From Pirellulales bacterium (GTDB lineage Bacteria > Planctomycetota > Planctomycetia > Pirellulales > JAEUIK01): DNA of 64,000 bases. Where the stretch lies: the NCBI GenBank assembly GCA_050184475.1, contig JBFXAH010000007.1:136328-200327 (forward strand), written 5' to 3'. The position numbers and the translations under genes are program-made. Shown here one piece after another: positions 1,854 through 61,568 of this stretch (position 1 is the first letter of the stretch; the number at the start of each line of letters is the position of its first letter). The notes below the pieces were generated by a model. That model worked only from the letters and a program-made list of their open reading frames with translations. It searched no databases and had not been told where the DNA came from.

Positions 1854-2114
1854 CTAGAAGTAGTTCCGCACGCCGACTGGCGTGCACTGACGTCTCGCAG
1901 GTTGCGGCTTTCGGGGCACGACGGCACGCCGCGACTCGAACTCAGCCAGGTCGCTGACATCGACGAGGTATCTTGGCCGGCCGCCGCGGCGAGTTGAGGC
2001 ATCGATCGCCGGCAACTCGCCGCTCCGGATCCAGGCCAGCACCTTGTCGGTACTGACTCCCCACCGCTTGGCGATTTGCGGTGGCGTTTGCTTTTGCAGA
2101 AGATTCTCACTCAT
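1854..2114 (-). CDS. excisionase / AlpA-type helix-turn-helix DNA-binding protein
   Basis: 86 aa. TPPQIAKRWGVSTDKVLAWIRSGELPAID is a typical excisionase-family HTH. It sits between the integrase and the primase. A GAGGTG RBS is present. Confidence 0.7.
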   Translation of the reverse strand: MSENLLQKQTPPQIAKRWGVSTDKVLAWIRSGELPAIDASTRRGGRPRYLVDVSDLAEFESRRAVVPRKPQPARRQCTPVGVRNYF

Positions 2115-2141
2115 GGTGCACCTCGCGATACAAGGTGCACC
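2115..2141. promoter_or_regulatory. two copies of the palindrome GGTGCACC (2115-2122, 2134-2141) at the excisionase start
   Basis: Read directly. An identical 8-nt self-complementary motif occurs twice, 19 bp start-to-start. The first copy touches the xis ATG (2112-2114). This is a candidate operator only. Confidence 0.35.
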
Positions 2142-2601
2142 TTGGACTAGACGGGTCTGCCCTTAGAGTTGGCGCAGACTGGCAGTTGTAGACGCGCGCA
2201 GCGGCGCATACAGAAAACTCAATGCTCATGTAATCGCTATTGTCGGGCTACAGATTGCCTAGCAACCTAAAGCCTCGAAAGCGCTCTACTGCGGCCAAAC
2301 CTTGGTCGCCCGAGCGTTTACTAACGGCTTTCTTACACCTGCGAGCACGCAGGTGCAAAAGCGTCTGTCATCATTGACAATAGCGATCTCTGGAGAGCAC
2401 CAGAGACGACACCGGGTTGCGTCCCGGAACGCCGAAATTCTTCTAGCGACATCTTTACGGGGGAGTCGCCATCCCCGAATGGACTTTCGAGGCTTGACTT
2501 TCCCTATTATTAGAATTAGCCCTGGCCCGTCAAGATCCGCCGTCCAAGTCGTGGTTGAGTTTGGCGACCGGTATTCCTAACAACAACGCGCGACTTGCGT
2601 C

Positions 2602-3747
2602 TCACAAACGAAACAGCCATCCTCGTACATGTTTTGTCACTGTTAGCAGCCGCTCATCGCTGATTCGCTCGCGGTAGACGCTGGCCATGTCGTCGCGGGC
2701 ATGGCCCATAATGTGGTCAACCGCGACCTGGTCCTTGGCTTCGCCAGCGACCGTCTCGAAGGTGTGGCGAAGCGCGTAGAAGTTCAGGCCTGGGCGGTGC
2801 AGTCTGAGGGACTTCAGGAGCTTCGTCATTTCCTTGGTCACGGGGTTGTCACAAGTAACCTTCGCCCAGGGTTGCCCGTATTTAGTGACGAACACCAACC
2901 GATCGTAGCCAAGGTCCTTCGGCTTTGGTCGTTTCTTAGCTACAACCTGCAGGGCGGCAACTGTCTCCGGCCATAACGGACAACGCCGCTGAACCCCAGT
3001 TTTGGGACGAGGATAGTCGATCCAACCATTGGTCAGGCTGAGAGCAGATCTGGGCAAATTCGCGACGTCACTGTTGCCGAACCCGCAGTTTATCCCCAGC
3101 AGGATCATTGCCTTCAGCTGTGTTCCGGCGCCCTCAAGCATGGCACGAATCTCTTTAGCCTCGAACAGCCGGGGGCCTTTCTCGTTGCGAACTTTGCGTA
3201 GGGTTTTCTTGCTCGGTCGCTTAAACGTCGGACCGAATCGGACCGGTCGATCGATCAGTTCCACGTCGTAGGCGAACTTGAACACACTGCGCACGCGTTG
3301 GATTTCATTGCCGAGCGCCACAGGGCCCCGCGTTTTAGCGAGCATGACACGCAGCCTGTCGAAGTCTTCCGCACGGAGGTCCGGTACTTGACGTGTCCGG
3401 CCAAATGCATCGACGATGCGAGTACAGACAGCTATGTAGTCAGCAAAGGTCCGCTCGGTGATTTCGCCGGTGTCAGCCAGGGTGCGTTTGGCGGTCAAGA
3501 ATCGGTTGCACAAGTCTCGAACGGTTGCACCATCGGGCGAGGTCCGCGGCTGTCGTCCCGCGTATAGGTCGTCTCGCTGGTCCAGGTACAATTGGAGAGC
3601 TGCGTCGGGTTCCGTCCAGGGGCCAAAGTAAACGAGCTTTCCGCGAATCTTCTTGGCCCACCTTCTGGTCGCATGTGGAAATAGAGGAAAACCTGGGTAT
3701 GGCTTTGTGGGTCTTTTGACGCTAGGCCGGCAAGTCAATTTAGGCAT
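2602..3747 (-). CDS. tyrosine-type site-specific integrase
   Basis: 381 aa. The C-terminal catalytic region has LRHTFETVAG...HIMGHARDDMASVYRE (R..HxxR..Y signature). The N-terminal part looks like a SAM-like core-binding region. The gene ends 105 nt from a tRNA gene. Confidence 0.9.
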   Translation of the reverse strand: MPKLTCRPSVKRPTKPYPGFPLFPHATRRWAKKIRGKLVYFGPWTEPDAALQLYLDQRDDLYAGRQPRTSPDGATVRDLCNRFLTAKRTLADTGEITERTFADYIAVCTRIVDAFGRTRQVPDLRAEDFDRLRVMLAKTRGPVALGNEIQRVRSVFKFAYDVELIDRPVRFGPTFKRPSKKTLRKVRNEKGPRLFEAKEIRAMLEGAGTQLKAMILLGINCGFGNSDVANLPRSALSLTNGWIDYPRPKTGVQRRCPLWPETVAALQVVAKKRPKPKDLGYDRLVFVTKYGQPWAKVTCDNPVTKEMTKLLKSLRLHRPGLNFYALRHTFETVAGEAKDQVAVDHIMGHARDDMASVYRERISDERLLTVTKHVRGWLFRL

Positions 3748-3851
3748 GAGGTGGCTCGGGTCCGGACCATTGCAGGTGTCAGAATGGGTGTCATCCCGAT
3801 ATACTTGCCCTTGGTGACATAGTCAACAAGGCACTATGCACAAATATCTTA

Positions 3852-3924
<73 letters not shown>

Positions 3925-4013
3925 CATTTCCAGCACAATCGCTGAGCGTGCCGTGACCGGTGTGTCGCAAGTGAGGGCCTCGATGACCCTTAGAGAAAAG
4001 CTTGTCCGAAGAG

Positions 4014-4095
4014 CGGAGGGCACGGGAGTCGAACCCGCAACCGGTTGCCCGGCATCTGATTTCGAGTCAGACCGCTAGCCATTCGCTTACCCTCC
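4014..4095 (-). tRNA. tRNA-Ser (anticodon CGA), class II with long variable arm; D-arm atypical
   Basis: The minus strand reads GGAGGGT-AA-GCGAATGGCTAGCGG-TCTGA-CTCGAAA-TCAGA-TGCCGGGCAACCGGTT-GCGGG-TTCGACT-CCCGT-GCCCTCC-G. The acceptor, anticodon, variable (CCGG-GCAA-CCGG) and T arms are all good. The two D-stem strands (GCG/GCG) are not complementary, and position 8 is A. Confidence 0.7.
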
Positions 4096-4933: not shown

Positions 4934-5887
4934 CTATTGCTGCTGTTGTTGCTGCTGATGTTGCTCGTCGGCCAGCGTGCCGTGTCGCGGGCGGAGCATC
5001 GAAATCGTCGGCACGTCGAGCGGTTGCAAATGCTCGTGCCAGGCGAGCGAGGGTAGCCGGGGCAATTCGCGGGTGGCCACGCGGACGCAGATCTTTTCGT
5101 CGGCTTCACCGCGATGCGTGCCCCGATTCGGCGGCACGTCGGTGTAATCGCGACCAATCGCTACGCGCACGAACCAGTCGGTCGCCTCGCAGCAATTCGT
5201 CGGGTCGTAGCCGAGCCAGCCCACGTCGGGCAGCCAGACCTCGCACCAGGCGTGGCTTTGCGAGTCTTTGTCGGGACGGTGGATGTAGCCGCTGACGTAG
5301 CGCGCCGGCACACCGTAAGAACGCAGCACGGCGATCATCAAGTGCGCGAAGTCCTGGCAGACGCCCTTGCCGGTCTCGAGCAAATGATCGATGGTCGACG
5401 TGCTGTCGGTGACGCCGCGCTCGTACTCGAACCGGTCGCGGAAGAACCGACCGACTTGTTCGATCCAGTCCCCCACGCGGCAGCCTTCGGGGGGCGCCAG
5501 TTGTCCGCGGATGGTCTGCAGGCGAGGCGAGTCGTGGACAGGGCCGCGGTAGGGCAGGAAGTCGAGCACGTCGCAGGTGTTCGTGGCGTCGGTCAGCGGG
5601 AAGGTCGCCGTGCTATCGGCCAGGCGGCGTTGCGGCAGACCGGTTTCGACCACGCTGGCCGCCAACACGCGAATCTGTTGATGCGGCGCCAACAGATTGA
5701 AGTGATGCACGCGGTTGCCGAAACCGTCGAGGTACCAAAACACGTTCGTCGGCTGGCTGACAGCCAAATGAAACGAATGGCAGCTTTGCTGCTCGTCGGT
5801 AACGGGCTGCATCCGCAGCTCGGCCAACCATTCGGAGACGGTTTCGGAGTATTCGAGCCGCGTCTCGTGTTGAATCTCGATGATCAT
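4934..5887 (-). CDS. transglutaminase-family protein (Bact_transglu_N + transglutaminase core)
   Basis: 317 aa. GKGVCQDFAHLMIAVLRSYGVPARYVSGY...SHAWCEVWLPDVGWLGYDPTN carries the Cys-His-Asp core. It is the last gene of the ATP-grasp/alpha-E/TGase triad. Confidence 0.85.
   Translation of the reverse strand: MIIEIQHETRLEYSETVSEWLAELRMQPVTDEQQSCHSFHLAVSQPTNVFWYLDGFGNRVHHFNLLAPHQQIRVLAASVVETGLPQRRLADSTATFPLTDATNTCDVLDFLPYRGPVHDSPRLQTIRGQLAPPEGCRVGDWIEQVGRFFRDRFEYERGVTDSTSTIDHLLETGKGVCQDFAHLMIAVLRSYGVPARYVSGYIHRPDKDSQSHAWCEVWLPDVGWLGYDPTNCCEATDWFVRVAIGRDYTDVPPNRGTHRGEADEKICVRVATRELPRLPSLAWHEHLQPLDVPTISMLRPRHGTLADEQHQQQQQQQ
4937..4963 (-). repeat. (CAR)n glutamine-codon run at the 3' end of the transglutaminase gene
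   Basis: The + strand reads TTGCTGCTGTTGTTGCTGCTG-ATG-TTG. This encodes ...EQHQQQQQQQ-stop, with seven consecutive Gln codons directly before the stop. Confidence 0.9.
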
Positions 5888-5923
5888 GGGCAGTCGGCCA
5901 GTGGGTCGGCGGTCGAGTGGTCG

Positions 5924-6874
5924 CTAGACGAGTGAGTACTGTTCTTGCACTGCCACCGTCGCGCGTGCGCAGCGTTGACCGGTTGTTTCGAGGAACGAGT
6001 GCAAGGCGTCATCGAGTACCTCGTGCGGCTCGGCGTATTCGAGATCGACGATGGCCCGCCCGAGAATGCGGCCCGCGCGGCCCCCCGGTTGCCCGGGATC
6101 GTCGCCTCCGATGGCCGCCAAATTCTCGGCCGCAGCCTTCAGACAAAACCGCACCGAGTAGGGAAAGTCGGGATTGAAGAGCAAGAATTCCAACACCCGT
6201 TCGGGCTCGACGCGGCTGATGTAGAGCCGCTGATAGGGATGATAGGCCTGGCAACATTCCAATACGCTGGCCCAGTGAAGGTTGGCCAGCGAGAGCTCCA
6301 TGGTGTCGGCCAGCGCCCGCAGTTGCCGGTAGCGGGTGTTGAGGATTCGCAGCGTCTTGTCGGCGCGTTCGAGGTACTTGGCGAGCTGAATGAACCGCCA
6401 GCTCTCGTCGTGGATCATCGTGGCGTCGCAAACGCCTTGAAACATCTGGTTGCCGGTTTGGACCGACTGATAGAGCTCGTGCGGCGAATCTTGCGCGCGG
6501 CGGCGAAACTCCGGGTCGGTCAACTGCCAATACAGCTTGTTCAGCTCGCGCCACATATCGGAGCTGATCGACCCGCGAATGCTGCGCGCGTTGTTGCGCG
6601 CGCGGTTGATGCAGGTCATGATGCTGGTGGGGTTCGCGCTCGAGAAGGTGAGCGCTTCGCTGACGGCGGCCGACAGCGGACCATCGGCTTCGCCCGGCGC
6701 CGGTTGCTGCAAGATCGCCAGCACGGCGGCCCATTGTAATTCTTGCGCGCCGGCCACGACGCCGTGCAGATCGAGCTCAAGGTGAAAACTGACTTCCAGC
6801 AGCCGCGCGACGTGGTCGGCCCGCTCGACGTAGCGGCTCATCCAGAACATGGCGTCGGCTACGCGACTGAGCAT
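5924..6874 (-). CDS. alpha-E domain protein (DUF403 family)
   Basis: 316 aa. The N-terminus MLSRVADAMFWMSRYVERADHVARLLEV is the hallmark start of alpha-E proteins. The gene sits between the ATP-grasp and transglutaminase genes. Confidence 0.85.
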   Translation of the reverse strand: MLSRVADAMFWMSRYVERADHVARLLEVSFHLELDLHGVVAGAQELQWAAVLAILQQPAPGEADGPLSAAVSEALTFSSANPTSIMTCINRARNNARSIRGSISSDMWRELNKLYWQLTDPEFRRRAQDSPHELYQSVQTGNQMFQGVCDATMIHDESWRFIQLAKYLERADKTLRILNTRYRQLRALADTMELSLANLHWASVLECCQAYHPYQRLYISRVEPERVLEFLLFNPDFPYSVRFCLKAAAENLAAIGGDDPGQPGGRAGRILGRAIVDLEYAEPHEVLDDALHSFLETTGQRCARATVAVQEQYSLV

Positions 6875-6952
6875 CGTATTGCGTACGCTTGATAGTTGAG
6901 GAGTGGAAACATCGAAGGCCGCCGGCCGACTTGATCGGCCGGGAATCTGCCG

Positions 6953-8455
<1,503 letters not shown>

Positions 8456-8753
8456 GGCGATAAGGCCGCCGGGCGAAATGACAGCGAATTGTAGGGGCAC
8501 GCAAAAAAGTTGCACGCCCGATTTCCGGCTTAATGTACAGGCAAGCGATGCGTTGACCAAAGGCACCCACACCGGCGGCGTAGCGACGGCGCGCGGCCCG
8601 ACAACCGGGACAAGTTGCAGATCAACACCGCTAAGTTAGGCTGGCGTTTGAACTAACGGGCGTTTCGCGGCGGCTGATCCCTCTCAGGCGACGGGGTTTC
8701 ACGCAACTGGTGTGCCACGCCGTCGGCATGAAAGCATGGGCTGGCAGCCGCGT

Positions 8754-48925: not shown

Positions 48926-50254
48926 ATGTCCACAATGGCCAACGAGGTTGACCTGCGCGAACTCGTCCTGTCGAACGCGCCGTTTGGACCGCAAACGATC
49001 AGTCAGATCAGCGACACGCTGGCCACGGGTACAAATAGCTTTCGCGCTTTGCGCGACGCCGTGCAGGAATTGGAGCTCAAGCCGGATCATTCGCCGGCTA
49101 GTCGCCTGCGCCTGGGCGTCTGCTTGTACTTGTTGGGGCGATACCAGAAAGCCATGGAGAACTTGAACGAGTCGGACGGTGGTCCGCTTGCCCAGTTCTA
49201 TAAGGCCAAATGCTTGATGGGTCGCCAGATGTATGCCGAGGCGATCAAGGCTTTCGAGGCCGCGGCCACGGCCGGCTACCCGGCCGATGAGTGCGCCTTG
49301 GGGCGCGTCGATGCCCTGCGCTGCGGTGGGGACGCACAAGGGGCGCTGGCCGTGCTCGACAAGCTCTCGGGCGCCGTCGAACAATCGGCGGAATACCTGT
49401 ACCAGCGCGGCGCGACGATCGCCGCCCTGGGGGGCAACCCCACGGAAGTCTGCGCGTTGTACGAGCGCGCGGTGGAGCGAGATCCTCAGCATCCGGGCGC
49501 GCTGTTTGGTGCGGCACTTGAAAACGATCGTCGCGGCAACGACGACCTGGCGATCGAATACTACGAACGCAGCGTGGGGCGATTTCCGCCGCACCTCGGC
49601 TCGCTGATGAACCTGGGCATCCTCTATGAAGATCGCAATCAGTTCGATCGCGCCATGGCCTGCTTTCAACGCGTGCTCGAGGTCTTTCCCGATCACTGGC
49701 GCGCGCGCCTCTTCGCCAAGGACGTAAACGTCACCGGCGATGTCATCTTTGACGAGGACGCCCAGCGCCGTCGCGACAAAGTCAGCCAGATGCTCAATGT
49801 TCCGGTGACCGACTTCGAACTCTCGGTGCGCAGCCGCAACTGCCTGCAGAAGATGGGCATCATGACCTTGGGCGACCTGACGATCGTCACCGAAATGGAG
49901 CTGTTGAACAGCAAGAATTTCGGCGAGACGTCGCTCGTCGAAATCAAGGAGATGATGGCCTCCAAAGGTCTCTCCCTGGGCCAATTCGCCAGCGAGAAGG
50001 CCCGCCCCGAAGTGACCTACGAACCCGAGGCCATGTCGCCCGACGAACAGGCGCTGCTGGGCCGGCCCATCTCCGACTTGAACCTCTCGGTGCGGGCGCG
50101 CAAATGCATGATCCGCCTCGGGCTGTCGACAATCGGCGAATTGGTGCGGCATACCGGCGATGAGCTGCTGGAGTGCAAGAACTTCGGCGTCACGAGCCTC
50201 AACGAAGTGCGCGAGAAGCTGACGACACACGGATTGCGGTTGCGCGGCGACTGA
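48926..50254 (+). CDS. TPR-repeat protein with two C-terminal RNA polymerase alpha-subunit CTD-like domains
   Basis: 442 aa. The N-terminal ~280 aa are TPR-like. Two segments then closely resemble the RpoA alpha-CTD: DFELSVRSRNCLQKMGIMTLGDLTIVTEMELLNSKNFGETSLVEIKEMMASKGLSLG and DLNLSVRARKCMIRLGLSTIGELVRHTGDELLECKNFGVTSLNEVREKLTTHGLRL. Confidence 0.85.
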   Translation: MSTMANEVDLRELVLSNAPFGPQTISQISDTLATGTNSFRALRDAVQELELKPDHSPASRLRLGVCLYLLGRYQKAMENLNESDGGPLAQFYKAKCLMGRQMYAEAIKAFEAAATAGYPADECALGRVDALRCGGDAQGALAVLDKLSGAVEQSAEYLYQRGATIAALGGNPTEVCALYERAVERDPQHPGALFGAALENDRRGNDDLAIEYYERSVGRFPPHLGSLMNLGILYEDRNQFDRAMACFQRVLEVFPDHWRARLFAKDVNVTGDVIFDEDAQRRRDKVSQMLNVPVTDFELSVRSRNCLQKMGIMTLGDLTIVTEMELLNSKNFGETSLVEIKEMMASKGLSLGQFASEKARPEVTYEPEAMSPDEQALLGRPISDLNLSVRARKCMIRLGLSTIGELVRHTGDELLECKNFGVTSLNEVREKLTTHGLRLRGD

Positions 50255-51878: not shown

Positions 51879-52265
51879 TTACCACGGCCCGCGGACGTAG
51901 TAGACGCCGAACTGATCGGTATCACTCGGCCAGCGCGGCGTGCCGCGGAACGGCGCGCCGGTGTATTCGACCGGTCCGGGATAGCCGCGCGAGAACTGGT
52001 GGTAAATCGGCGTCACGCGCGTTCCCCCCACGCCCCAGTGATAATCGGTTTGCAGCGCCGCGGTCGGCGGGACGACGAGCGCAACGGGGCGACCCCAAGC
52101 GACGTGGTAATAGTCGCCGTGCCAGGTGTAGATGTTGGCTGCCTCGGCCGCGCGGTAGCGCCAGCGACGGGCGGCTTTCGTCTCGAAACCGTGCGCGGCG
52201 TCGAGCGAAACGCAGGTTACCAACAGCAAAATGGCCAATTGCAATGGTCGCGCGATCATGGGCAA
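51879..52265 (-). CDS. small secreted hypothetical protein (128 aa)
   Basis: The signal peptide is MPMIARPLQLAILLLVTCVSLDAA. The protein is rich in Tyr, Trp and Pro. It shares a VPP...Y.P..H.F core with the upstream gene product. Confidence 0.6.
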   Translation of the reverse strand: MPMIARPLQLAILLLVTCVSLDAAHGFETKAARRWRYRAAEAANIYTWHGDYYHVAWGRPVALVVPPTAALQTDYHWGVGGTRVTPIYHQFSRGYPGPVEYTGAPFRGTPRWPSDTDQFGVYYVRGPW

Positions 52266-52339: not shown

Positions 52340-52837
52340 TTACCATTTGCGGCAATTGACTCCCGGAAAACCGGGGAGTTCGTCCAGGCAATTGTGCCCC
52401 CACCGCACGCGCGTGATCGTCGTGCCAGGGGCGGGCTTGCAACAGCACGGCTTCTTGCAGCAGGTGCGGCAGCACGATCCACATCCCGGCCCACAGCAGC
52501 CGTGGCCCGATTCGAGCGGGCCGAGCTCGTCGTCGGACGTGCCATAGTGCCGGTAATACTTGCGGTGATGCGTATACAAGAACTCGTGCGGCATCAGCGG
52601 CTGATAGGTGATCCAGGTGTGCCCGACGTGCGGCGGCACGGGGCGCGGCGACAAGTACATCTGGGCCGGCACGCCACCGTAGGCTGGCGAAGGCCCGACG
52701 TAGTAGTTGTAAAACAGGTCGGGCGTTGTCGCGCCGGGCCGGTAACCCTGGGCAGCGGCCGGACGAGCCGCTCCCACGGTCACGACCACGGCCATGAACA
52801 GGGAGGGCAGCAGCACACGCATGAACTTTCGAGACAT
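52340..52837 (-). CDS. small secreted protein with Cys-dense C-terminal segment (165 aa)
   Basis: I chose the inner ATG 52837 with a GAGGAG RBS. The signal peptide is MSRKFMRVLLPSLFMAVVVTVGAARPAAA. The sequence GHGCCGPGCGSCCRTCCKKPCCCKPAPG has 10 Cys within 20 residues (aa 114-133). Confidence 0.6.
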   Translation of the reverse strand: MSRKFMRVLLPSLFMAVVVTVGAARPAAAQGYRPGATTPDLFYNYYVGPSPAYGGVPAQMYLSPRPVPPHVGHTWITYQPLMPHEFLYTHHRKYYRHYGTSDDELGPLESGHGCCGPGCGSCCRTCCKKPCCCKPAPGTTITRVRWGHNCLDELPGFPGVNCRKW

Positions 52838-53299
52838 CGGCGAGCTCCTCTGGGTCGGAGAAGAACTTCTGCGAGCGGTTCGAATAGCGACATTGGGGAC
52901 CTCCAGCGAGCCGGTGGCAGGCGGAGCCACCGATCGCCGGCGGGTCGCGCGGCGCCGATTCGCGATCGGGCAGCCGACCTTCGAACGGCCGACGGGAGTC
53001 TCGCATCGCCAGATGCGCGTCGCCGTCGGCGTCCAGAAACTATCTCGGCGCTGGCCGGTCGCAGGGATGAATCTTTGTGCGCCGCGCGTGTCAGAAGAGC
53101 TTGCCGCATCAAGTTTAACGACGATCAGACTTGGGGGCAGGACCGCATACCCGCTATAATCGACACGACCCGCACGACGGGCTGAACCCGGGTTCCAGAT
53201 CGCAGCGGCGGCACTGCTTGAGGGAGCATCCGCGGTCAGAAAGGACTCGATACGGTCACGGGAGGACCGACCGACTGGTCTCATCTCGCCTGGGCGTCA

Positions 53300-55675
53300 T
53301 TGGGTATCTGGCCACGGAGGCCAGCCTTCGCAGGTCGAACCGCTCGGGATGCGTCGCTCCCCGGGGTGTCAAAATTGCAACCTGTTTTCTTGACGTTGGG
53401 GAGTTCTCGCTTGGCAGTCTCGAAAAGTCGCAAACTCTCGGCAGAGCAGGCGAAAACCGCGCACAGCAACGGCCACGCAGCCAATGGCGCGGTCGTCAAA
53501 CGCGGCGCGAAATCGGATAACGGGTCCGCGACTGACAGCACCGATGTCGGTGACGAGGGCGCCGAGAACGCCGATGAAGCAGGCGCCGACGACCGCGCGC
53601 ATGCCGAATCCAACGGCGCGGGTCGCAAGTCGCGCCGTCGCGCCACCGCCCAGTCGATGGCCGCCAGCCAGCGCGATATCTCGGTCAGCGAATTCTTCGC
53701 CAAGAATCGCCACTTGTTGGGCTTCGACAATCCGCGCAAGGCGCTACTGACCACGGTCAAGGAAGCAGTCGACAACGCGCTCGACGCTTGCGAAGAGGCC
53801 GGCATTCTTCCCGAAGTCTGGGTCCATATTCGCCAGACCGGCGACACTCGTTATCAGGTCGGCGTGCAAGACAACGGGCCAGGCATTCTCAAGCAGCAGA
53901 TTCCCAACGTCTTCGGCAAGCTGCTCTACGGGTCAAAGTTTCACCGTCTGCGAATGAGCCGCGGTCAGCAAGGGATCGGCATCAGCGCCGCCGGCATGTA
54001 CGGCCTGCTGACCACGGGCAAACCGGTCAAGATCATGTCGAAGGTTTCGCCCAAGAAGCCGGCGCACTACTACGAAATCGCGATTAACACGAAGGTCAAC
54101 CGCCCCGAGATTCTCAACGGCAAAGGAGACGGGGTCGACGTGCCGCCGGGAGCAGCCGGCCAGGCAGCGATGGAAAAGCACGCCATCGAATGGGTCGAAA
54201 CCGATCACGGCACGCGCGTCACCATCGAGCTCGAAGCTCGCTACCAGCGCGGCCGCGGCAGCGTCGACGATTATCTGGCGCAAACCTGCATCGCCAACCC
54301 GCACATCAAGCTGCACTACATCGATCCGGAAGGGACCACCACCGAGTTCGAGCGTTCGACCGAGGAACTGCCCCCCGAAGCCAAAGAGATCATGCCGCAC
54401 CCGTACGGCATCGAGCTCGGGCAATTGGTGACGATGCTCAAAGACTCGAAGCCGATGTCGCTGTCGCAGTTCTTGAGCGGTTCGTTCTCGCGCGTCAGCT
54501 CAAGCACCGCCAAGCGCATCTGTGAGACAGCCAAGCTCAGCACGCGGGCGAACGTTCACCGCGTCGGTCGCCACGAAGCCGAATCTCTCTACAAAGCCCT
54601 GCAAGAGACGCGCATCCCGCCGCCGTCGACCGATTGCGTGGTGCCGATCGGTGAGCAGCGGCTGCTCAAGGGGCTGCATCACGTGGTGCCGGGCGACTTC
54701 TACGTGGCGGTAACTCGCCCGCCGGCCGTGTATCGCGGCAATCCGTTCGTGATCGAGGCGGCCTTGGCCTATGGCGGGGCGCCTTCGGCCGCCCGCGTGT
54801 CACTCGAGCAACTGACCGACTTTCTGCAAGAGAGCGACGCCCGCACGTTGCGGCAGTTTCTGGCCACGACGTTCCAGGGAGTGGGCATGGAGGGGGCCAA
54901 CAAGATTGTCAAAGAGTCGGGCCTCGGCACCCGGCAGACCCCCAGCAAGCTCAAGCCCAAGGAAATCCTGAAACTGCACGAGGCCCTGCAAAGCGTCAAT
55001 CTCGACGAAGGGCAAACGATGAACGTGCTGCGATACGCCAACCGCGTGCCGCTGCAGTTTCAACAGGGGGCTTGCGCCATCACGCAAACCGTGGTGGGCA
55101 CGAGTTGGCGCGCCTACGGGTTGACGCAGTCGCGCAATTCGTTGCCCAGTGGGCCGGTCACCATCATGGTACACATGGCCAGCGTGTGGGTGCCGTTCAC
55201 CAGCGAATCGAAGGAAGCGATCGCCGGCTATCCCGAAATCCAGCGCGAGCTGCGGCTGGCGTTGCAGGCGATCGGTCGCAAGCTCGGGCTGTACATGCGT
55301 CGCAAATTGAAAGTGCGCGACGCCGGCGCCCGCCGCAACACGTTCCTCAAATACCTGAACGAGATCGCCGAGGCGGTGACCGTTATCAAGGACTATCCCG
55401 AAAGCCGCACCAAGCAGCTCTACGAAAAGCTGTGCGCGGTGGCCAAAGTCAAGACGCTGCACGCCGATCTGCGGGTCGACGAGAAAGGCAACTTCGTCGA
55501 AGAAAGCGGTGACGAGGCTCAGGACTTTGGCGACAACGTGCTGATCGTCGATCGGGACGCGACCGACAGCGCGTCGGCTGCTCCCGAAGGTGCCGATCAA
55601 GAGACTGCCGCGACCGCGCCGCGAGGGTCGAAATCCAAAGCCAAACGGTCGACGGCCAAACGCCGCGGCAAGTAA
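53300..55675 (+). CDS. top6B: DNA topoisomerase VI subunit B (GHKL ATPase)
   Basis: ISVSEFFAKNRHLLGFDNPRKALLTTVKEAVDNALDACEE (N-box), VQDNGPGI (G1) and SRGQQGIGISAA (G2) are present, followed by an H2TH region. The transducer has VYRGNPFVIEAALAYGG...LRYANRVPLQFQQGACAIT. The start is ambiguous: 53300, TTG 53411 (GGGGAG RBS) or ATG 53657. Confidence 0.88.
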   Translation: MGIWPRRPAFAGRTARDASLPGVSKLQPVFLTLGSSRLAVSKSRKLSAEQAKTAHSNGHAANGAVVKRGAKSDNGSATDSTDVGDEGAENADEAGADDRAHAESNGAGRKSRRRATAQSMAASQRDISVSEFFAKNRHLLGFDNPRKALLTTVKEAVDNALDACEEAGILPEVWVHIRQTGDTRYQVGVQDNGPGILKQQIPNVFGKLLYGSKFHRLRMSRGQQGIGISAAGMYGLLTTGKPVKIMSKVSPKKPAHYYEIAINTKVNRPEILNGKGDGVDVPPGAAGQAAMEKHAIEWVETDHGTRVTIELEARYQRGRGSVDDYLAQTCIANPHIKLHYIDPEGTTTEFERSTEELPPEAKEIMPHPYGIELGQLVTMLKDSKPMSLSQFLSGSFSRVSSSTAKRICETAKLSTRANVHRVGRHEAESLYKALQETRIPPPSTDCVVPIGEQRLLKGLHHVVPGDFYVAVTRPPAVYRGNPFVIEAALAYGGAPSAARVSLEQLTDFLQESDARTLRQFLATTFQGVGMEGANKIVKESGLGTRQTPSKLKPKEILKLHEALQSVNLDEGQTMNVLRYANRVPLQFQQGACAITQTVVGTSWRAYGLTQSRNSLPSGPVTIMVHMASVWVPFTSESKEAIAGYPEIQRELRLALQAIGRKLGLYMRRKLKVRDAGARRNTFLKYLNEIAEAVTVIKDYPESRTKQLYEKLCAVAKVKTLHADLRVDEKGNFVEESGDEAQDFGDNVLIVDRDATDSASAAPEGADQETAATAPRGSKSKAKRSTAKRRGK

Positions 55676-55779
55676 CAGGCGATCGACGCCTGGGTGCCAC
55701 TGCTGGCTTGTCCAGCAGTGCCTATGGGGCGACTGTCCCCGTCAACTGGATGCTGTTTTCACTAACACTTGGTTACCAC

Positions 55780-56943
55780 ATGGCCAAAAAAGCCCGCGGC
55801 AAATCGACTTCGAGCAGCTCCGGCACCGCGACCGCGCGCCCCAAGCTCAACGAACGCGACAAGAAAACCATGGGGGAGCTGCACGGCCTGGCCGGCGGCG
55901 TGGAAACGGCCGCCGACAAGAAACGCGACCCCTACCTCGATATCCCCAGCCGCACCTTGTCGAACGTCCGGTTCAACAAGGCCAAGCGGTTCATCGAGAT
56001 GGGCAAGAACACCACGCGCCGGCAGCTCTTCAATCTCTCGCAGGCCAAGAGCTACATGCAAACGCTGCTTGTCGCCAAAGGCTCGAAGCAGCTCATCACC
56101 GAAGGCAAGACCACCAGCTTGCGAGGTTTGTTCTACTTGCTCAAGCACACGATCGAGGGGACCAAGGAAGACACCTTCGAAGAGCAGACCGAGTGCGACT
56201 CGATCATCGAGGATGTCGAGGTGACGCTCAACGCCCTGCGAGAAGAACTGCACTTGTTCGCCAAGGAAGCTGGCAGCATCGTCGGGCCAATCACGCTGGT
56301 CGACACCGGCGACGAAATCGATTGCTCGCGGATGGGCTCGGGCGGCTATAGCATCCCGTCGATCGTCGAGCCCGACGTAATCCAGTTCAAGAACAACCGC
56401 GCCAAGTTCGTGCTGCACGTCGAAAAGGGGACGGTCTGGCGGCGGTTCAACGAAGACAAATTCTGGCAGAAGCACAACTGCATTCTCACCCACGGCGGCG
56501 GGCAGCCCCCGCGCGGCGTGCGGCGGCTGTTGCATCGCTTTCATTACGAGCTCGACTTGCCGGTCTACTGCCTGTTGGATAACGACCCCTGGGGATACTA
56601 CATCTACAGCGTGATCAAACAGGGCTCGATCAACCTGGCCTTCGAGTCGAAGCGGATGGCCGTGCCAGGGGCCAAGTACTTGGGGCTGCGGTCGATCGAC
56701 TTCGCCCGTTGCGAGCTGTCGCCGGCGGTGCAAATCCGGCTGAACGACACCGACATCAAGCGGGCCAAACAGATCGCCGCCTACCCCTGGTTCGCCGACA
56801 AGAAGCCGTGGCAGCGAGAGATCGAGCAGATGCTCAAGAACGCCTTCAAGCTCGAGGTCGAGTCGCTGATCTCCAAGAACATCAGCTACGTGACCGAGAC
56901 GTACGTGCCCGAGCGGCTCAAGCAGCAAGACTGGCTCGACTAG
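55780..56943 (+). CDS. top6A: DNA topoisomerase VI subunit A (Spo11-like)
   Basis: I chose the inner ATG 55780 (MAKKARGKS...). SLRGLFYLLKH carries the catalytic-Tyr motif. The Toprim Glu is in FVLHVEKGTVW and the DxD is in YCLLDNDPWGYYIY. The protein is about 387 aa. Confidence 0.88.
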   Translation: MAKKARGKSTSSSSGTATARPKLNERDKKTMGELHGLAGGVETAADKKRDPYLDIPSRTLSNVRFNKAKRFIEMGKNTTRRQLFNLSQAKSYMQTLLVAKGSKQLITEGKTTSLRGLFYLLKHTIEGTKEDTFEEQTECDSIIEDVEVTLNALREELHLFAKEAGSIVGPITLVDTGDEIDCSRMGSGGYSIPSIVEPDVIQFKNNRAKFVLHVEKGTVWRRFNEDKFWQKHNCILTHGGGQPPRGVRRLLHRFHYELDLPVYCLLDNDPWGYYIYSVIKQGSINLAFESKRMAVPGAKYLGLRSIDFARCELSPAVQIRLNDTDIKRAKQIAAYPWFADKKPWQREIEQMLKNAFKLEVESLISKNISYVTETYVPERLKQQDWLD

Positions 56944-57217
56944 GGGCCCCCGCAGGCTGCCACTTCGGCGCGCACGGGTACGACAGCCGGGCGCCCCGCG
57001 ATTTCAGCGCGATAGTCGCTCTTCTAGTGGCACGTGCCGTCTGTATCGAAAATTACGACGGTAGCTTGGTTGCCGCCGAACAACCGGTCTCTCGACGGCG
57101 GAACTCGCCGCTAGTGGACAGTCGAGCCGGGCATCCACGGCGTTGTCGCGATTCTAAAGTTGTAGGGCCATCGTGTTCTACATCTTCGACAACTCGAATT
57201 GCACTGCGACAAGTCCT

Positions 57218-58399
57218 ATGCCCCTGGCTATCGAATCTCAGCAAGGCACCGAACTTGAAACACCGACGCTGCCAAAGTCGTCCCTGGTGGCGCACGCGAA
57301 GATCATGGTGGTGGATGACGAGCCGCTCAACATTCGCACGGTCTGCCACCACCTATCGATCGCCGGATACCAACACTTCATTCCTGTAAGCGACTCCACG
57401 CAGGTGCTGGGGGCGCTCGCGATGGAAGAGCCGGATGTTGTCCTGCTCGATATCGTGATGCCGGAGCCGGGCGGATTGGAGCTCCTCTCGCAAATCCGCG
57501 CCCTGGAGGGATGGGAGCAACTCCCGGTCGTGATCCTCACGGCGATCGACGATTGCAGCGTGAAGGCGAGGGCGTTGGACCTGGGGGCTACCGACTTCCT
57601 CACGAAGCCGGTGGATTCGAGCGAGCTGATCCCACGCGTGCGAAATGCCCTGTTGCTCAAGGCATATCACGACCATCTGCGAACGTATGCGCAACGGCTC
57701 GAAGCACAGGTCCGCGCGCGCACCGACGAACTCGAACAGTCCCGGATGGCCATTATTCAATCGTTGGCGCGCGCGGCGGAGTACCGCGATAACGAGACAG
57801 GCCGCCATGCGTTGCGCGTCGGAAAATACGCCGGCCTGATTGCGCGGGCGCTTGGCTTGTCCGAGGAGTCGTCGGAGCTGATCGAGTTGGCAGCGCCACT
57901 TCACGACGTGGGCAAGATCGCGATCTCGGACTCCATCCTGCTGAAGCCCGACAAGCTCACGCCCGAGGAAATGGAGGTAATGCAATCGCACTGTGGGCAC
58001 GGCAAACGCATTTTCGAGCCTATTTGCGGCGACGAGGTCGTGGCCTATCGCGCCCATACCCGACTTGGTCAAGAAATGGTTGGGACCTGCCGCGCGCCGG
58101 TCCTCGATATGGCGGCATCGATCGCGCTCACCCACCATGAGCGTTGGGACGGCAATGGTTATCCACTCGGTCTGGCTGGCGAGGATATTCCCATCGAAGG
58201 TCGCGTCACCGCGGTTGCTGACGCGTTCGACGCACTGAGTTCCAAACGCAGCTACAAGCGACCTTTTCCCCTCGATAGGTGCTTCGCCATCCTCGAGGAG
58301 GGGCGGGCGACGCAGTTCGACCCCGCGGTGCTCGATGCCTTCTTCGCTTGCCGTAGAGAGATCGTCCGCGTCCAGTTGTTGCTGGCGGAAGTGCAATAG
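57218..58399 (+). CDS. response regulator with HD-GYP domain (RpfG-like c-di-GMP phosphodiesterase)
   Basis: The REC domain has IMVVDDEPLN...DVVLLDIVMPEPGG...VVILTA. The HD-GYP domain has PLHDVGKIAI...THHERWDGNGYPLGL. The start is either ATG 57218 or GTG 57173. Confidence 0.88.
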   Translation: MPLAIESQQGTELETPTLPKSSLVAHAKIMVVDDEPLNIRTVCHHLSIAGYQHFIPVSDSTQVLGALAMEEPDVVLLDIVMPEPGGLELLSQIRALEGWEQLPVVILTAIDDCSVKARALDLGATDFLTKPVDSSELIPRVRNALLLKAYHDHLRTYAQRLEAQVRARTDELEQSRMAIIQSLARAAEYRDNETGRHALRVGKYAGLIARALGLSEESSELIELAAPLHDVGKIAISDSILLKPDKLTPEEMEVMQSHCGHGKRIFEPICGDEVVAYRAHTRLGQEMVGTCRAPVLDMAASIALTHHERWDGNGYPLGLAGEDIPIEGRVTAVADAFDALSSKRSYKRPFPLDRCFAILEEGRATQFDPAVLDAFFACRREIVRVQLLLAEVQ

Positions 58400-58977
58400 T
58401 GATTCCGCATAAAGTCGTCGCGTTGCTGGTCGGTTGGGTGCTGGCAATTTCCGCCGGCGGGTACGCGATGCTGCGCTACGAGCTAACAGGGCGACAACCT
58501 GCTGCACGCTCCGGCCATTGGCCTTATTCGACCAAGCTGACTCGCGAACAGCAGCGCGCGACACTGGTCATGTTCTTGCATCCGCAATGTCCGTGTTCCC
58601 GCGCGAGCGTGGCCGAATTGACGACGCTGCTGACCCACTGCCGCGACCAGGTCGACGTTACCGTGGTTTTCGTGCGCCCCGAGGTATTTCCCCCCGGCTG
58701 GGAGGTAGCCTCGCTCTGGCGCGCTGTCGAGGCGCTTCCAGTGGCTATGGTCGTCGATCCAGGTGGCCGCGAAGCAAGGGAATTCGGCGCACACACATCG
58801 GGAGAAGTATTCCTGTACGACGCTCAGGGGGCGCTGGTGTTTCAGGGAGGTATTACCGCCGGTCGAGGCCATCAAGGCGATAATCCGGGACGTTGGGCGA
58901 TCACGGCATTTCTTCAGCACGGAACGACGAATTGCCCCCAGACCACCGTATATGGATGCCCACTTTTCAACTCTTAA
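58399..58977 (+). CDS. membrane-anchored thioredoxin-fold protein (CPC motif)
   Basis: The GTG start overlaps the upstream TAG by 1 nt. An N-terminal TM segment is followed by LVMFLHPQCPCSRASV (Cys-Pro-Cys where Trx-fold proteins carry CxxC). A second Cys pair occurs in NCPQTTVYGCP. Confidence 0.6.
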   Translation: MIPHKVVALLVGWVLAISAGGYAMLRYELTGRQPAARSGHWPYSTKLTREQQRATLVMFLHPQCPCSRASVAELTTLLTHCRDQVDVTVVFVRPEVFPPGWEVASLWRAVEALPVAMVVDPGGREAREFGAHTSGEVFLYDAQGALVFQGGITAGRGHQGDNPGRWAITAFLQHGTTNCPQTTVYGCPLFNS

Positions 58978-59000
58978 ACGGTCCAGCGCAAGAGGGCGGC

Positions 59001-61568
59001 ATGATGACATCGTCGTTGGATGTCGGCGACAAACAGGTGGGAGCCGAGGCGGAGTTGATGTTTCGGCAACTGCGACAGCGCCTGTACGCGCGCACTGATC
59101 GCATGTTTGCCGTGCTGATGGCTTATCAATGGCTGGCCGCGGTGGTCGCGGCGCTGTGGATTTCGCCCCGCACCTGGCATGGCAGCGCCAGCCAGACGCA
59201 TCTACATGTCATCATGGCGGAGTTATTAGGGGGAGTTCTTGCCAGCGTCCCGATTGTGCTGGCGATGCGCTACCCCGGCCAGGCTTTCACCCGACATACG
59301 ATCGCGATCGCTCAGGTCCTCTTCTCTACGTTGCTCATTCACTTAACAGGCGGCCGGATCGAAACTCACTTTCACGTCTTTGGCTCTCTGGCGTTCTTGG
59401 CGTTTTACGGTGATTGGGCATTGCTGATCGCGCCCACGCTGATCGTGGCTGCGGATCACTTTCTGCGGGGGCTCTACTTTCCTCAGTCGGTTTACGGAGT
59501 TCTCGTGGTGAGCCCCTGGCGTTGGCTTGAGCACGCCGGCTGGGTGCTGTTCGAGGATCTGTTCTTGATCTTGTCTTGTCGCCGTAACGTGGCCGAGCTA
59601 CGGCTGGTTGCCAGACGCACCGCGGAACTGAGTGAACGCACGACCGAGCTCGAATCAGCCCTGCAATCCAATCGCGCGATCGTGGATGCAGCGCTCGACG
59701 CGGTGGTCGGATTCGACGGCGCGGGACGCATCGTTGACTGGAATCCGCAAGCGGAACAACTTTTCGGGCTGACGCGCGAAGAGGCGCTTGGACGTTGGTT
59801 GACCGACGAGGGCATTCCACCCGCGTTTTGCGAATTGCACGCTCAAGGAATGGCCGAGTACCGTCGCACGGGACCGACGCGCGTTTTGAACCAGCGCGTC
59901 GAAGTCGTGGCACATAATGCCCATCGCGGCCCGTTTCCCGTGGAAGTCGCCGTGGTCCCTATCCGCCATGGCGACGATGTCAGTTTCTCGGTCTTTATCC
60001 GGGACATTACCGAGCGGCAACGCGCCGAGCAGTCGATGCTGGCGGCCAAGGAGGCGGCCATCGCCGCTGACAAGGCCAAGAGTGCGTTCTTGGCAAACAT
60101 GAGCCATGAAATCCGCACGCCCTTGAACGGGATCCTCGGTTTCACGAAGCTCCTGTTGCAATCGGGCCCGGAGCTGCCAGGGAACGAGCGGGACGACTAT
60201 CTCCAAACCGTCCACGGCAGCGCCACGAATCTTCTGGCGCTGATCAACGACGTGCTCGATCTTTCAAAGATCGAGGCCGGACACCTAGACGTCGAGATCA
60301 TGGACTGCAACCCCGGGCAGATCATTGCCGAAGTTGCATCGCTGTTGCGGGCCAGGGCACAGGAAAAAGGGCTCCGCCTCGAAGCCCGCTGCGCAGGCGG
60401 CACGACCACGACCATTCGCACCGACCCGACTCGCCTGCGGCAACTGTTGCTCAACCTGGTCGGCAACGCCGTGAAATTCACCGACCAAGGCCAGATAGAG
60501 ATCAACGCCTATTTCGTGCCGACGGCCGATCGCATTCGGTACTGCATCGATGTCACGGATACTGGCATCGGCATAGCCGAGGACCGCATTCAGCACATTT
60601 TTGATCCCTTCGTCCAAGGAGACAATTCGGTCACACGGCGGTACGGCGGCACGGGGTTGGGGCTGGCCATTTGTTGCCGCCTGGCGACGGCCCTTGGAGG
60701 CGAGCTGAGGGTGCGCAGCGTGCCCGGCCAAGGTACAACGTTTTCGGCAGAGATCGATCCCGGTCCTGTGTCGCCCGACATCAAGTTGCCGCTGGTGCCC
60801 ATTGAGGTTTTTCGCCCACAGGCGTCTATCGCTTCCGCGCAGGTCGGGCAGCTTAATGGACGCGTGCTGGTCGTAGAAGATGGCGACACAAACCGCAAAC
60901 TGGTCAGCCTCGTCTTACGGCGTGCTGGAGTGGAGGTGGTTGAAGCTGAGAACGGTCAGGTCGGCGTCGAGAAAGCCTCTGCCGAGCGGTTTGACCTGAT
61001 CTTGATGGACATGCAAATGCCGGTGCTCGATGGCTACAACGCGACGCGACAGTTGCGGCAGCACGGCATCGACATTCCAATCATTGCCCTGACGGCCCAC
61101 GCGATGAAAGGAGACGAAGAAGAGTGCATCGCTGCCGGCTGTTCGGGGTATCTCGCCAAACCGATTGATACGGATCTGCTCTTGCGCACCGTGGCCGGAA
61201 TCCTGACTCGTGCCAAGCGCCGTCCAGACGTCGAGCAACCCTTGGTGTCGACGCTGCCCTTGGATGATCCAGAGTTTCAGGCCATCGTGGCAAGTTTTAG
61301 AGAGCGTTTGCTGGAGCAACTTGTCGCCATGCGGATTGCCGCCGCGGAGCAAGACCTGTCTCGGCTGCGAGAGTTGGCACACTGGCTCAAAGGGGCGGGC
61401 GGAACCGTCGGCTTCAACATCCTCAGCGTTGAAGCCGTCAAGCTCATGCAGTGCATCGACCGACAAAGCAGCACAGAGATCGGCTCGATTCTCGATGAAC
61501 TAGAATCGACGGCGGCGCGAATTGCCATTCCAGACGCTGAGCCCAGCCGTAATCCATCGCTACGCTGA
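59001..61568 (+). CDS. hybrid sensor histidine kinase (polytopic N-domain, PAS, HisKA, HATPase, REC, HPt)
   Basis: I chose the inner ATG 59001 (AGAGGG RBS). The H-box is SHEIRTPLNGILGF and the N-box is LLNLVGNAVKFT. G-boxes are DTGIGI and GGTGLGLAI. REC has VLVVEDGDTN...LILMDMQMPVLDG...IALTAHA. HPt has LAHWLKGAGGTVG. Confidence 0.9.
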   Translation: MMTSSLDVGDKQVGAEAELMFRQLRQRLYARTDRMFAVLMAYQWLAAVVAALWISPRTWHGSASQTHLHVIMAELLGGVLASVPIVLAMRYPGQAFTRHTIAIAQVLFSTLLIHLTGGRIETHFHVFGSLAFLAFYGDWALLIAPTLIVAADHFLRGLYFPQSVYGVLVVSPWRWLEHAGWVLFEDLFLILSCRRNVAELRLVARRTAELSERTTELESALQSNRAIVDAALDAVVGFDGAGRIVDWNPQAEQLFGLTREEALGRWLTDEGIPPAFCELHAQGMAEYRRTGPTRVLNQRVEVVAHNAHRGPFPVEVAVVPIRHGDDVSFSVFIRDITERQRAEQSMLAAKEAAIAADKAKSAFLANMSHEIRTPLNGILGFTKLLLQSGPELPGNERDDYLQTVHGSATNLLALINDVLDLSKIEAGHLDVEIMDCNPGQIIAEVASLLRARAQEKGLRLEARCAGGTTTTIRTDPTRLRQLLLNLVGNAVKFTDQGQIEINAYFVPTADRIRYCIDVTDTGIGIAEDRIQHIFDPFVQGDNSVTRRYGGTGLGLAICCRLATALGGELRVRSVPGQGTTFSAEIDPGPVSPDIKLPLVPIEVFRPQASIASAQVGQLNGRVLVVEDGDTNRKLVSLVLRRAGVEVVEAENGQVGVEKASAERFDLILMDMQMPVLDGYNATRQLRQHGIDIPIIALTAHAMKGDEEECIAAGCSGYLAKPIDTDLLLRTVAGILTRAKRRPDVEQPLVSTLPLDDPEFQAIVASFRERLLEQLVAMRIAAAEQDLSRLRELAHWLKGAGGTVGFNILSVEAVKLMQCIDRQSSTEIGSILDELESTAARIAIPDAEPSRNPSLR

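Follow-up and report, generated by a model that had tools for sequence, protein, structure and literature searches.

A probable DNA topoisomerase VI of a Pirellulales bacterium whose B subunit appears to carry a second H2TH domain

Introduction

DNA topoisomerase VI (Topo VI) acts as an A2B2 tetramer in a strand-passage scheme that is known for the entire family, with relaxation and decatenation at the expense of ATP and a cleavage staggered by 2 nt as hallmarks of the holoenzyme. Among bacteria, the enzyme occurs in 17 families including the Pirellulaceae, Lacipirellulaceae and Thermoguttaceae (Allen and Maxwell, 2024, PMC11302465), and the same study infers an archaeal origin of the bacterial enzymes by horizontal gene transfer and finds that Topo VI-bearing lineages outside the Pseudomonadota and Terrabacteria, including those of the Planctomycetes-Verrucomicrobia-Chlamydiae (PVC) group, contain gyrase and no Topo IV. 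A biochemical characterization of any bacterial Topo VI was not found in the literature searched. Here we have analyzed a 64,000 nucleotide (nt) stretch of DNA from a Pirellulales bacterium (contig JBFXAH010000007.1), in the following referred to as the window, which contains two adjacent genes, top6B and top6A. Very probably, these are native to the Pirellulales chromosome and specify a functional Topo VI, with top6B accounting for its ATPase subunit (B) and top6A for its cleavage subunit (A). Since the enzyme of this clade has already been published and is routinely annotated, the locus is one more ortholog, and the novelty ascribed to it in the original prediction, which had been made from the nucleotide sequence, was overstated. 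The locus mostly confirms the published picture of a Pirellulales Topo VI that is archaeal-derived and found alongside gyrase, apparently without Topo IV. Its one fresh detail is a second H2TH domain in the B subunit, a modest, testable addition whose value for topoisomerase enzymology lies in its conservation at a site where other lineages have no more than a short loop or an insert of low complexity.

The closest described systems are the enzymes of Pirellula staleyi, Lacipirellula parvula and Thermogutta terrifontis (PMC11302465), which belong to the same clade and from which the protein pair of the window does not differ in any substantive way. Identity amounts to 61-71% for relatives from the genomes of Lacipirellula, Thermoguttaceae and Pirellulaceae, which share a helical transducer insert of about 75 residues. 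The Topo VI of Methanosarcina mazei (PDB 2Q2E and, from electron cryo-microscopy, 9O0G/9O8P) likewise combines GHKL, H2TH, transducer and stalk regions in Top6B and a winged-helix and a Toprim domain in Top6A, and its H2TH domain, defined as residues 235-311 (PMC13040014), couples bending of the G-segment to cleavage (PMC5922973). A more distant reference is the Topo VI of Saccharolobus shibatae (PDB 2ZBK, 1MX0), whose B subunit contains a single H2TH domain and, as in the window's Top6B, no Ig-like C-terminal domain (PMC11302465). Topo VIII/Mini-A shares the repertoire of GHKL, H2TH and transducer together with 5Y-CAP and Toprim domains and is typically a single fused polypeptide, or one split within the transducer, that resides on a plasmid or integrated element (PMC7671362), whereas in the Spo11/TopoVIB-like meiotic complex the B-like subunit has no H2TH and a degenerate GHKL domain (PMC11302465).

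The gene pair and its assignment to Topo VI

All coordinates refer to positions in the 64-kb window. At the locus, two open reading frames (ORFs) on the + strand (53300..55675 and 55708..56943) contain top6B and top6A, which are both intact and follow each other in the order B then A with 104 nt between them, close to the roughly 100 nt originally proposed. The following features were located:

53398..53403, + strand: Shine-Dalgarno-like GGGGAG, which was read from the sequence and precedes the top6B start by 8 nt
53411..55675, + strand: top6B coding sequence, TTG start, 754 amino acids (aa), stop codon included
53411..53632, + strand: N-terminal low-complexity extension (aa 1-74), predicted to be disordered, with a predicted local distance difference test score (pLDDT) below 50 in the AlphaFold2 (AF2) model
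53633..54400, + strand: N-strap RRRATAxSMAASQRDISVSEFF and GHKL/Bergerat ATPase domain (aa 75-330)
54410..54625, + strand: H2TH-1, the canonical H2TH domain (aa 334-405), which aligns to the M. mazei H2TH
54782..55006, + strand: H2TH-2, the probable second copy (aa 458-532), a transducer insert between AYGG and the YANRVPL strand
55007..55480, + strand: rest of the transducer and stalk helix (aa 533-690)
55508..55672, + strand: C-terminal tail, acidic and then Lys/Arg-rich (aa 700-754), mostly predicted to be disordered
55676..55779, + strand: spacer between top6B and top6A, 104 nt, with a 9-bp hairpin CACTGCTGG/CCAGCAGTG
55780..56943, + strand: top6A coding sequence, ATG start, 387 aa, stop codon included
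56050..56256, + strand: 5Y-CAP/winged-helix region of Top6A (aa 91-159; Pfam TP6A_N, E 3e-15)
56407..56919, + strand: Toprim domain of Top6A (aa 210-380; PF21180, E 5.5e-57), aligned to 2zbk_A, 1d3y_A and 2q2e_A

The identity of both proteins, as it had been claimed from their motifs, is confirmed by Pfam and by the equivalog models of NCBIfam. Top6B matches the Pfam families Topo-VIb_trans (E 1.2e-50) and HATPase_c (1.9e-10), and Top6A matches, besides TP6A_N and TOP6A-Spo11_Toprim (PF21180) with the E-values listed above, Topo_VI_alpha (4.8e-10). Both proteins exceed equivalog cut-offs, Top6B with 665.9 bits for NF003218 (cut-off 274) and 495.1 bits for TIGR01052 (cut-off 380.7) and Top6A with 550.8 bits for NF003333 (cut-off 465). 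The closest relatives of known structure are Top6B from M. mazei (2q2e_B, 6.6e-142) and, aligned from end to end, Top6A from S. shibatae (2zbk_A, 7.8e-73), and the AF2 model of the whole Top6B finds M. mazei Top6B as top match (9o0g_B, E 1.2e-46). The pair is thus placed in Topo VI and not in Topo VIII, the MutL/Hsp90-type ATPases or a family of defence nucleases. Features of the Spo11/TopoVIB-like complex were not found either, with H2TH being present twice and the GHKL boxes being intact.

Top6A is 100% identical to a protein from a metagenome-assembled genome (MAG), P0121, which is deposited as 'MAG: DNA topoisomerase IV subunit A [Pirellulales bacterium]' and bears the same name as the title of NF003333, 'DNA topoisomerase IV subunit A'. 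For Top6A this name is a misnomer that confuses IV with VI, and automated surveys of Topo IV distribution would therefore count the protein as ParC.

Domains and functional residues

To describe the functional residues, we have taken their roles from PMC5922973 and PMC13040014 and mapped their positions through alignments with the M. mazei and S. shibatae proteins. All motifs quoted in the original prediction were located, including the N-box, the G-boxes, YANRVPL, RGLFY, the Toprim Glu and DNDPWG. Conservation covers the catalytic Tyr, the acidic residues of the Toprim domain, the boxes of the ATPase and the switch Lys. In Top6B, the GHKL/Bergerat domain displays an N-box (KEAVDNALDA, aa 117-126) with the characteristic Glu and Asn (E118/N122), a G1 box (DNGPGI, aa 154-159) of the form DxGxG, and a G2 box (SRGQQGIGISAA, aa 183-194) in which G185-QQ-G188-I-G190 fits GxxGxG. 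The H2TH region that had been predicted corresponds to aa 334-405 and, in the AF2 model, forms a four-helix module (helices 336-345, 351-358, 364-373 and 387-399), in which the DNA-contacting K268 and K308 of M. mazei are replaced by R361 and R401; it is accompanied by the second copy at aa 458-532. The transducer contains the YANRVPL motif (aa 542-548) with the anchoring N544, the equivalent of the WKxY motif (WRAY, aa 566-569, with W566/R567/Y569), the switch lysine K601, and a long helix (608-659 in the AF2 model) that includes the stalk residue R623.

Both ends of Top6B are variable. The N-terminal extension is found in most homologs with a mean identity of just 19%, and the C-terminal tail shows 35% conservation. 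In the AF2 model, the pLDDT of this tail stays under 50 at aa 699-702 and 717-754 and is about 59-63 at aa 703-716, where a single short strand and a helix are predicted, and an Ig-like C-terminal domain of the M. mazei type is absent from the model.

In Top6A, the catalytic Tyr119 (codon 56134-56136) resides in the motif LRGLFY (114-119), with its partner R115. Both residues align to R102/Y106 of S. shibatae, and Y119 also to Y106 of M. mazei. The Toprim domain offers a metal-binding Glu and a DxD motif, with its acidic residues being E215 (HVEKG, 213-217), D267/D269 (LLDNDPWG, 265-272) and E359.

With 39-40% identity over about 590 aligned columns, Top6B is considerably closer to its M. mazei counterpart than to that of S. 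shibatae, to which it is only 26-27% identical in a structural alignment. The key residues E44/K435 (B) and Y106/E342 (A) of M. mazei correspond to E118/K601 and Y119/E359. Differences from M. mazei Top6B include the charged and largely disordered tail in place of the Ig-like domain, the 74-residue disordered N-terminal extension, two substitutions at DNA-related positions (KGRR to RGRG and R263 to Ser, see below) and the extra H2TH domain.

Across 52 Top6B homologs of 63-88% overall identity, the strap is 94%, the GHKL domain 80% and the transducer core 81-85% identical. This conservation supports purifying selection on top6B and agrees with the proposal that the pair would be functional rather than a relic.

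A second H2TH domain in the transducer

H2TH-2 constitutes an extra segment of 75 residues compared to M. mazei Top6B that is inserted exactly at the junction between G363 and N364. Its relationship to H2TH-1 of the same protein is detected by BLASTP (E 5e-9, 29% identity) and by profile-profile comparison with hhalign (probability 98%, E 1.5e-13, 68 columns). Both copies match positions 176-239 of Pfam NFACT_N, and H2TH-2 in addition weakly matches ribosomal protein S13, which is another H2TH fold. The four-helix pattern predicted by AF2 is identical in H2TH-1 and H2TH-2. A model of the isolated H2TH-2 (pLDDT 78) finds the H2TH domain of M. mazei Top6B as best match in the PDB, with a template modelling (TM) score of 0.79, a root-mean-square deviation of 1.1 Å and 30% identity, followed by S. 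shibatae Top6B, S13 proteins, sIHF and the H2TH domains of MutM/Nei. The resemblances to S13 proteins, sIHF (6bek) and MutM (1ee8/3sas), with TMq values of 0.5-0.74, are distant and at the level of the fold (E 0.04-0.2) and do not indicate membership in these families. We thus consider aa 458-532, with high confidence, as a duplicated and diverged copy of the H2TH domain.

H2TH-2 was found in all 81 related loci examined, and its conservation is similar to that of H2TH-1 (63% vs 65% identity). To judge its wider distribution, we have used a library of Top6B representatives clustered at 50% identity, in which H2TH-2 is confined to the cluster of this protein and to some sequences that are fragments or contain frameshifts, while in full-length relatives at 55% identity or less the site is occupied by a short loop or an insert of low complexity. 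Three clusters with a seemingly 'divergent' H2TH-2 (P0255, P0310 and P0364) were rejected as evidence for a wider distribution because the appearance of their alignments suggests that they are frameshifted assemblies. The nearest relatives without the insert include one Planctomycetota MAG.

Other insertions occur in the same transducer loop. In P0252, a Top6B of 48% identity, a different insert of about 75 residues is located within aa ~447-542 (…LPGFTRKKVAECLEKTGISPRTRVKSL…), which has no significant match to either of the two H2TH hidden Markov models, and P0241 and P0248 contain short low-complexity inserts. The loop therefore appears to tolerate insertions.

The hairpin G490-V-G492-M-E-G-A496 of H2TH-2 is invariant and fits GhGxxxA, the consensus of the helix-hairpin-helix. 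Among its basic residues, R481 and R508 are invariant and R478 and K515 near-invariant. H2TH-2 probably corresponds to the 'unique alpha-helical bundle' projecting into the central cavity in a model of P. staleyi Top6B (PMC11302465). That study does not name the bundle H2TH, and its identification as an H2TH duplication was not found in the literature searched.

As for its function, a non-specific contact to the DNA backbone in or near the central cavity would be the most economical hypothesis, which we offer as a tentative conjecture. Two points speak against it. H2TH-2 lacks all three basic residues that contact DNA in M. mazei, their equivalents being A485, G490 and N530, and it is therefore not a copy of the known DNA interface; moreover, its placement relative to the cavity is taken from the published description of the P. 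staleyi model. Alternatively, H2TH-2 may play a purely structural role or mediate protein-protein interactions. If it does contact transported or crossing DNA, H2TH-2 would be a new DNA-sensing element with the potential to shift the preference of the enzyme to crossings or catenanes in bacteria without Topo IV, and it would account for the helical bundle that had been described, without being assigned to a known domain, for P. staleyi and the dinoflagellate Cladocopium goreaui. With the H2TH of M. mazei coupling DNA bending to cleavage, its duplication provides a natural experiment on the sensing of DNA geometry by type IIB enzymes. The Pirellulales Topo VI may represent a structurally distinct type IIB subtype whose H2TH-2 originated in an ancient internal duplication and came to lie in a transducer loop that is described as facing the central T-segment cavity.

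Gene starts and operon organization

The original prediction had placed the beginning of the region at 53300, which does not hold as a gene start. TTG 53300 is only the first TTG in the ORF and lies about 37 codons ahead of TTG 53411, at which translation of top6B likely begins. This sequence-based assignment yields a protein of 754 aa as in the gene call on the identical NCBI contig (17 kb, assembly GCA_050174325.1) and is in line with the N-terminus MAVSKARK of a homolog of 87-88% identity. A start at Met120 (672 aa, as in NCBI P0003) was rejected, since homologs of only 65-77% overall identity retain, as protein sequence, the RRRATAxSM motif located upstream of this methionine. For top6A, ATG 55780 was preferred over the TTG at the start of the ORF (55708), and the resulting product of 387 aa is the one that is fully identical to P0121.

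The stability of the hairpin in the spacer does not significantly exceed that of shuffled sequences (z -1.6), providing no indication of a regulatory structure, and scans for promoters and terminators over 52900-57400 revealed sites at chance level. With neither a significantly stable hairpin nor a terminator signal above chance, top6B and top6A are probably co-transcribed.

Long ORFs that are antisense or run in different frames overlap the top6 genes between 53281 and 56928, such as 55762-56928 (388 aa) and 54800-55600 (266 aa). None of them is among the ORFs that pass a codon-position filter for likely genes (GC content above 0.72 at third positions, GC3, and below 0.55 at second positions, GC2), and they therefore look like by-products of high G+C content.

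Mechanism, native status and alternative explanations

By analogy to the family, an A2B2 tetramer would bind the G-segment across the Top6A dimer, and ATP binding would dimerize the GHKL domains of Top6B around the T-segment. The transducer would relay the signal to Top6A via the switch Lys601 and the stalk helix, upon which Tyr119 and a Mg2+ site formed by E215/D267/D269 would cut both strands to let the T-segment pass, leading to the relaxation of supercoils and, preferentially, to decatenation. A preference for decatenation is ascribed to Topo VI in PMC8837201. Since the PVC bacteria with Topo VI have gyrase and lack Topo IV according to published surveys, the enzyme would most likely serve as the main decatenase of the cell. 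Both options raised in the original prediction, replacement of Topo IV and horizontal acquisition, are in keeping with PMC11302465.

Several observations weigh against the assignment as functional Topo VI. The KGRR loop that senses DNA crossings in M. mazei is reduced to RGRG (aa 280-283) in Top6B, and R263, an H2TH residue that contacts DNA in M. mazei, is replaced by S356 in H2TH-1, which weakens two DNA-sensing elements. The full-length AF2 model of Top6B is of moderate confidence only (pLDDT 70). Finally, top6A does not directly follow top6B in 19 of the 62 informative related loci, being absent within 2.5-6 kb downstream (these include L006, L008, L017, L032, L037 and L044), while in the remaining 43 it does, in the same B-then-A order. 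Linkage of the two genes is thus not required, and the B-A operon is common in the clade, not universal. A connection between the loss of KGRR and the gain of H2TH-2 was considered and discarded, as the loop varies in relatives with and without the insert.

The best of the alternatives, although an unlikely one, describes the enzyme as intact but redundant, supplementing gyrase and Topo IV in a special task such as the relaxation of supercoils at highly transcribed regions. Yet the seven families for which this is at issue all belong to the Pseudomonadota or Terrabacteria and the Topo VI-bearing PVC bacteria have neither ParC nor ParE (PMC11302465), and strong conservation throughout the clade fits an essential role.

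We regard it as highly improbable that the pair was recently acquired on a mobile element, as a Topo VIII-like or plasmid-type IIB enzyme in place of a core chromosomal one. Such an origin would be in keeping with the archaea-to-bacteria transfer of Topo VI inferred in PMC11302465, with the finding that integrated elements of some Planctomycetes, for example Fimbriiglobus, carry Topo VIII, and with an integrase adjoining tRNA-Arg in the window (2602-3925). However, this integrase is located about 50 kb from the top6 pair, and no mobile-element genes were found within ±10 kb of the latter. The original prediction had suggested GC content and codon usage as indicators of horizontal transfer, and these reveal no sign of a recent event: the GC3 values of top6B (0.78) and top6A (0.83) lie between the extremes seen for the window's other likely genes (0.72-0.86), and overall GC also matches the neighbours. 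Unlike the fused Topo VIII, the proteins are two separate subunits, encoded by complete genes that are split at the canonical B/A boundary, and both pass the Topo VI equivalog cut-offs. A search of plasmids returned only haloarchaeal Top6B at 45-47% identity.

The distribution of the genes likewise argues against recent acquisition. Each subunit has more than 8000 metagenomic homologs, and a scan in which each GTDB species was represented by one genome identified close relatives in at least 547 species genomes. Nearly all of the best 80 belong to Pirellulales, Thermoguttaceae, Lacipirellula or Aeoliella. The statement that Topo VI is reported only sporadically in Bacteria was thus overstated for this order. 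The identity of Top6A to the MAG protein confirms the host as one of the Pirellulales, in agreement with the planctomycete-like lineage originally suspected, and genes of the window and those flanking the pair are housekeeping or typical for planctomycetes (EF-G, IspG, PFK, DUF1501/PSCyt2/PSD1, DUF1559), as expected for the typical planctomycete chromosome that the window represents. The matching GC3 and the absence of nearby mobile-element genes imply that any transfer would be ancient, and the presence in hundreds of species of the order points to old vertical inheritance thereafter. All these observations favour a Topo VI native to the chromosome.

The proposal that the pair is a defence system, composed of a Top6A-like Toprim nuclease of the Wadjet JetD/MksG type and an associated ATPase instead of a topoisomerase, has a negligible probability, as the nuclease activity of Top6 homologs in MksBEFG/Wadjet described in PMC13040014 and a marginal PADLOC match of Top6A to JetD (E 2.5e-4, 18 bits, against 551 bits for the Topo VI-A equivalog) are opposed by the lack of any PADLOC match of Top6B, by neighbours that are unrelated and include no JetABC or Mks genes, and by a full Top6B with H2TH, transducer and switch Lys.

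Other features of the window

Just upstream of top6B, two small genes on the - strand (51879-52259 and 52340-52837) have no Pfam match and signal-peptide-like N-termini, with the product of the second displaying a Cys-rich C-terminal stretch GHGCCGPGCGSCCRTCCKKPCCCKP. Directly downstream of top6A, the region 57173-61568 on the + strand encodes an HD-domain response regulator of the HD-GYP type (408 aa), a 192-aa protein without Pfam match and, as third gene product, a hybrid histidine kinase of the architecture PAS-HisKA-HATPase-REC-Hpt; the region has no evident link to topoisomerases.

Further away, a gene of the phage-integrase family (2602-3747, - strand) adjoins tRNA-Arg(CCT) (3852-3925, + strand) and tRNA-Ser(CGA) (4013-4095, - strand), and the lowest GC content of the window (0.563) is found at 2001-4000. 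The stretch 2602-4095 may mark the border of an integrated element. Three genes at 4934-8635 on the - strand encode a circularly permuted ATP-grasp protein (CP_ATPgrasp_2, 1.6e-161), an Alpha-E domain protein (2.9e-85) and a transglutaminase-like protein, a recurrent and conserved trio with an uncertain function in peptide modification. Finally, a protein of 442 aa encoded at 48926-50254 on the + strand shows an unusual combination of N-terminal TPR repeats with RNA_pol_A_CTD-like sequence, of which two tandem copies can be recognized by eye (…FELSVRSRNCLQKMG… and …LNLSVRARKCMIRLG…).

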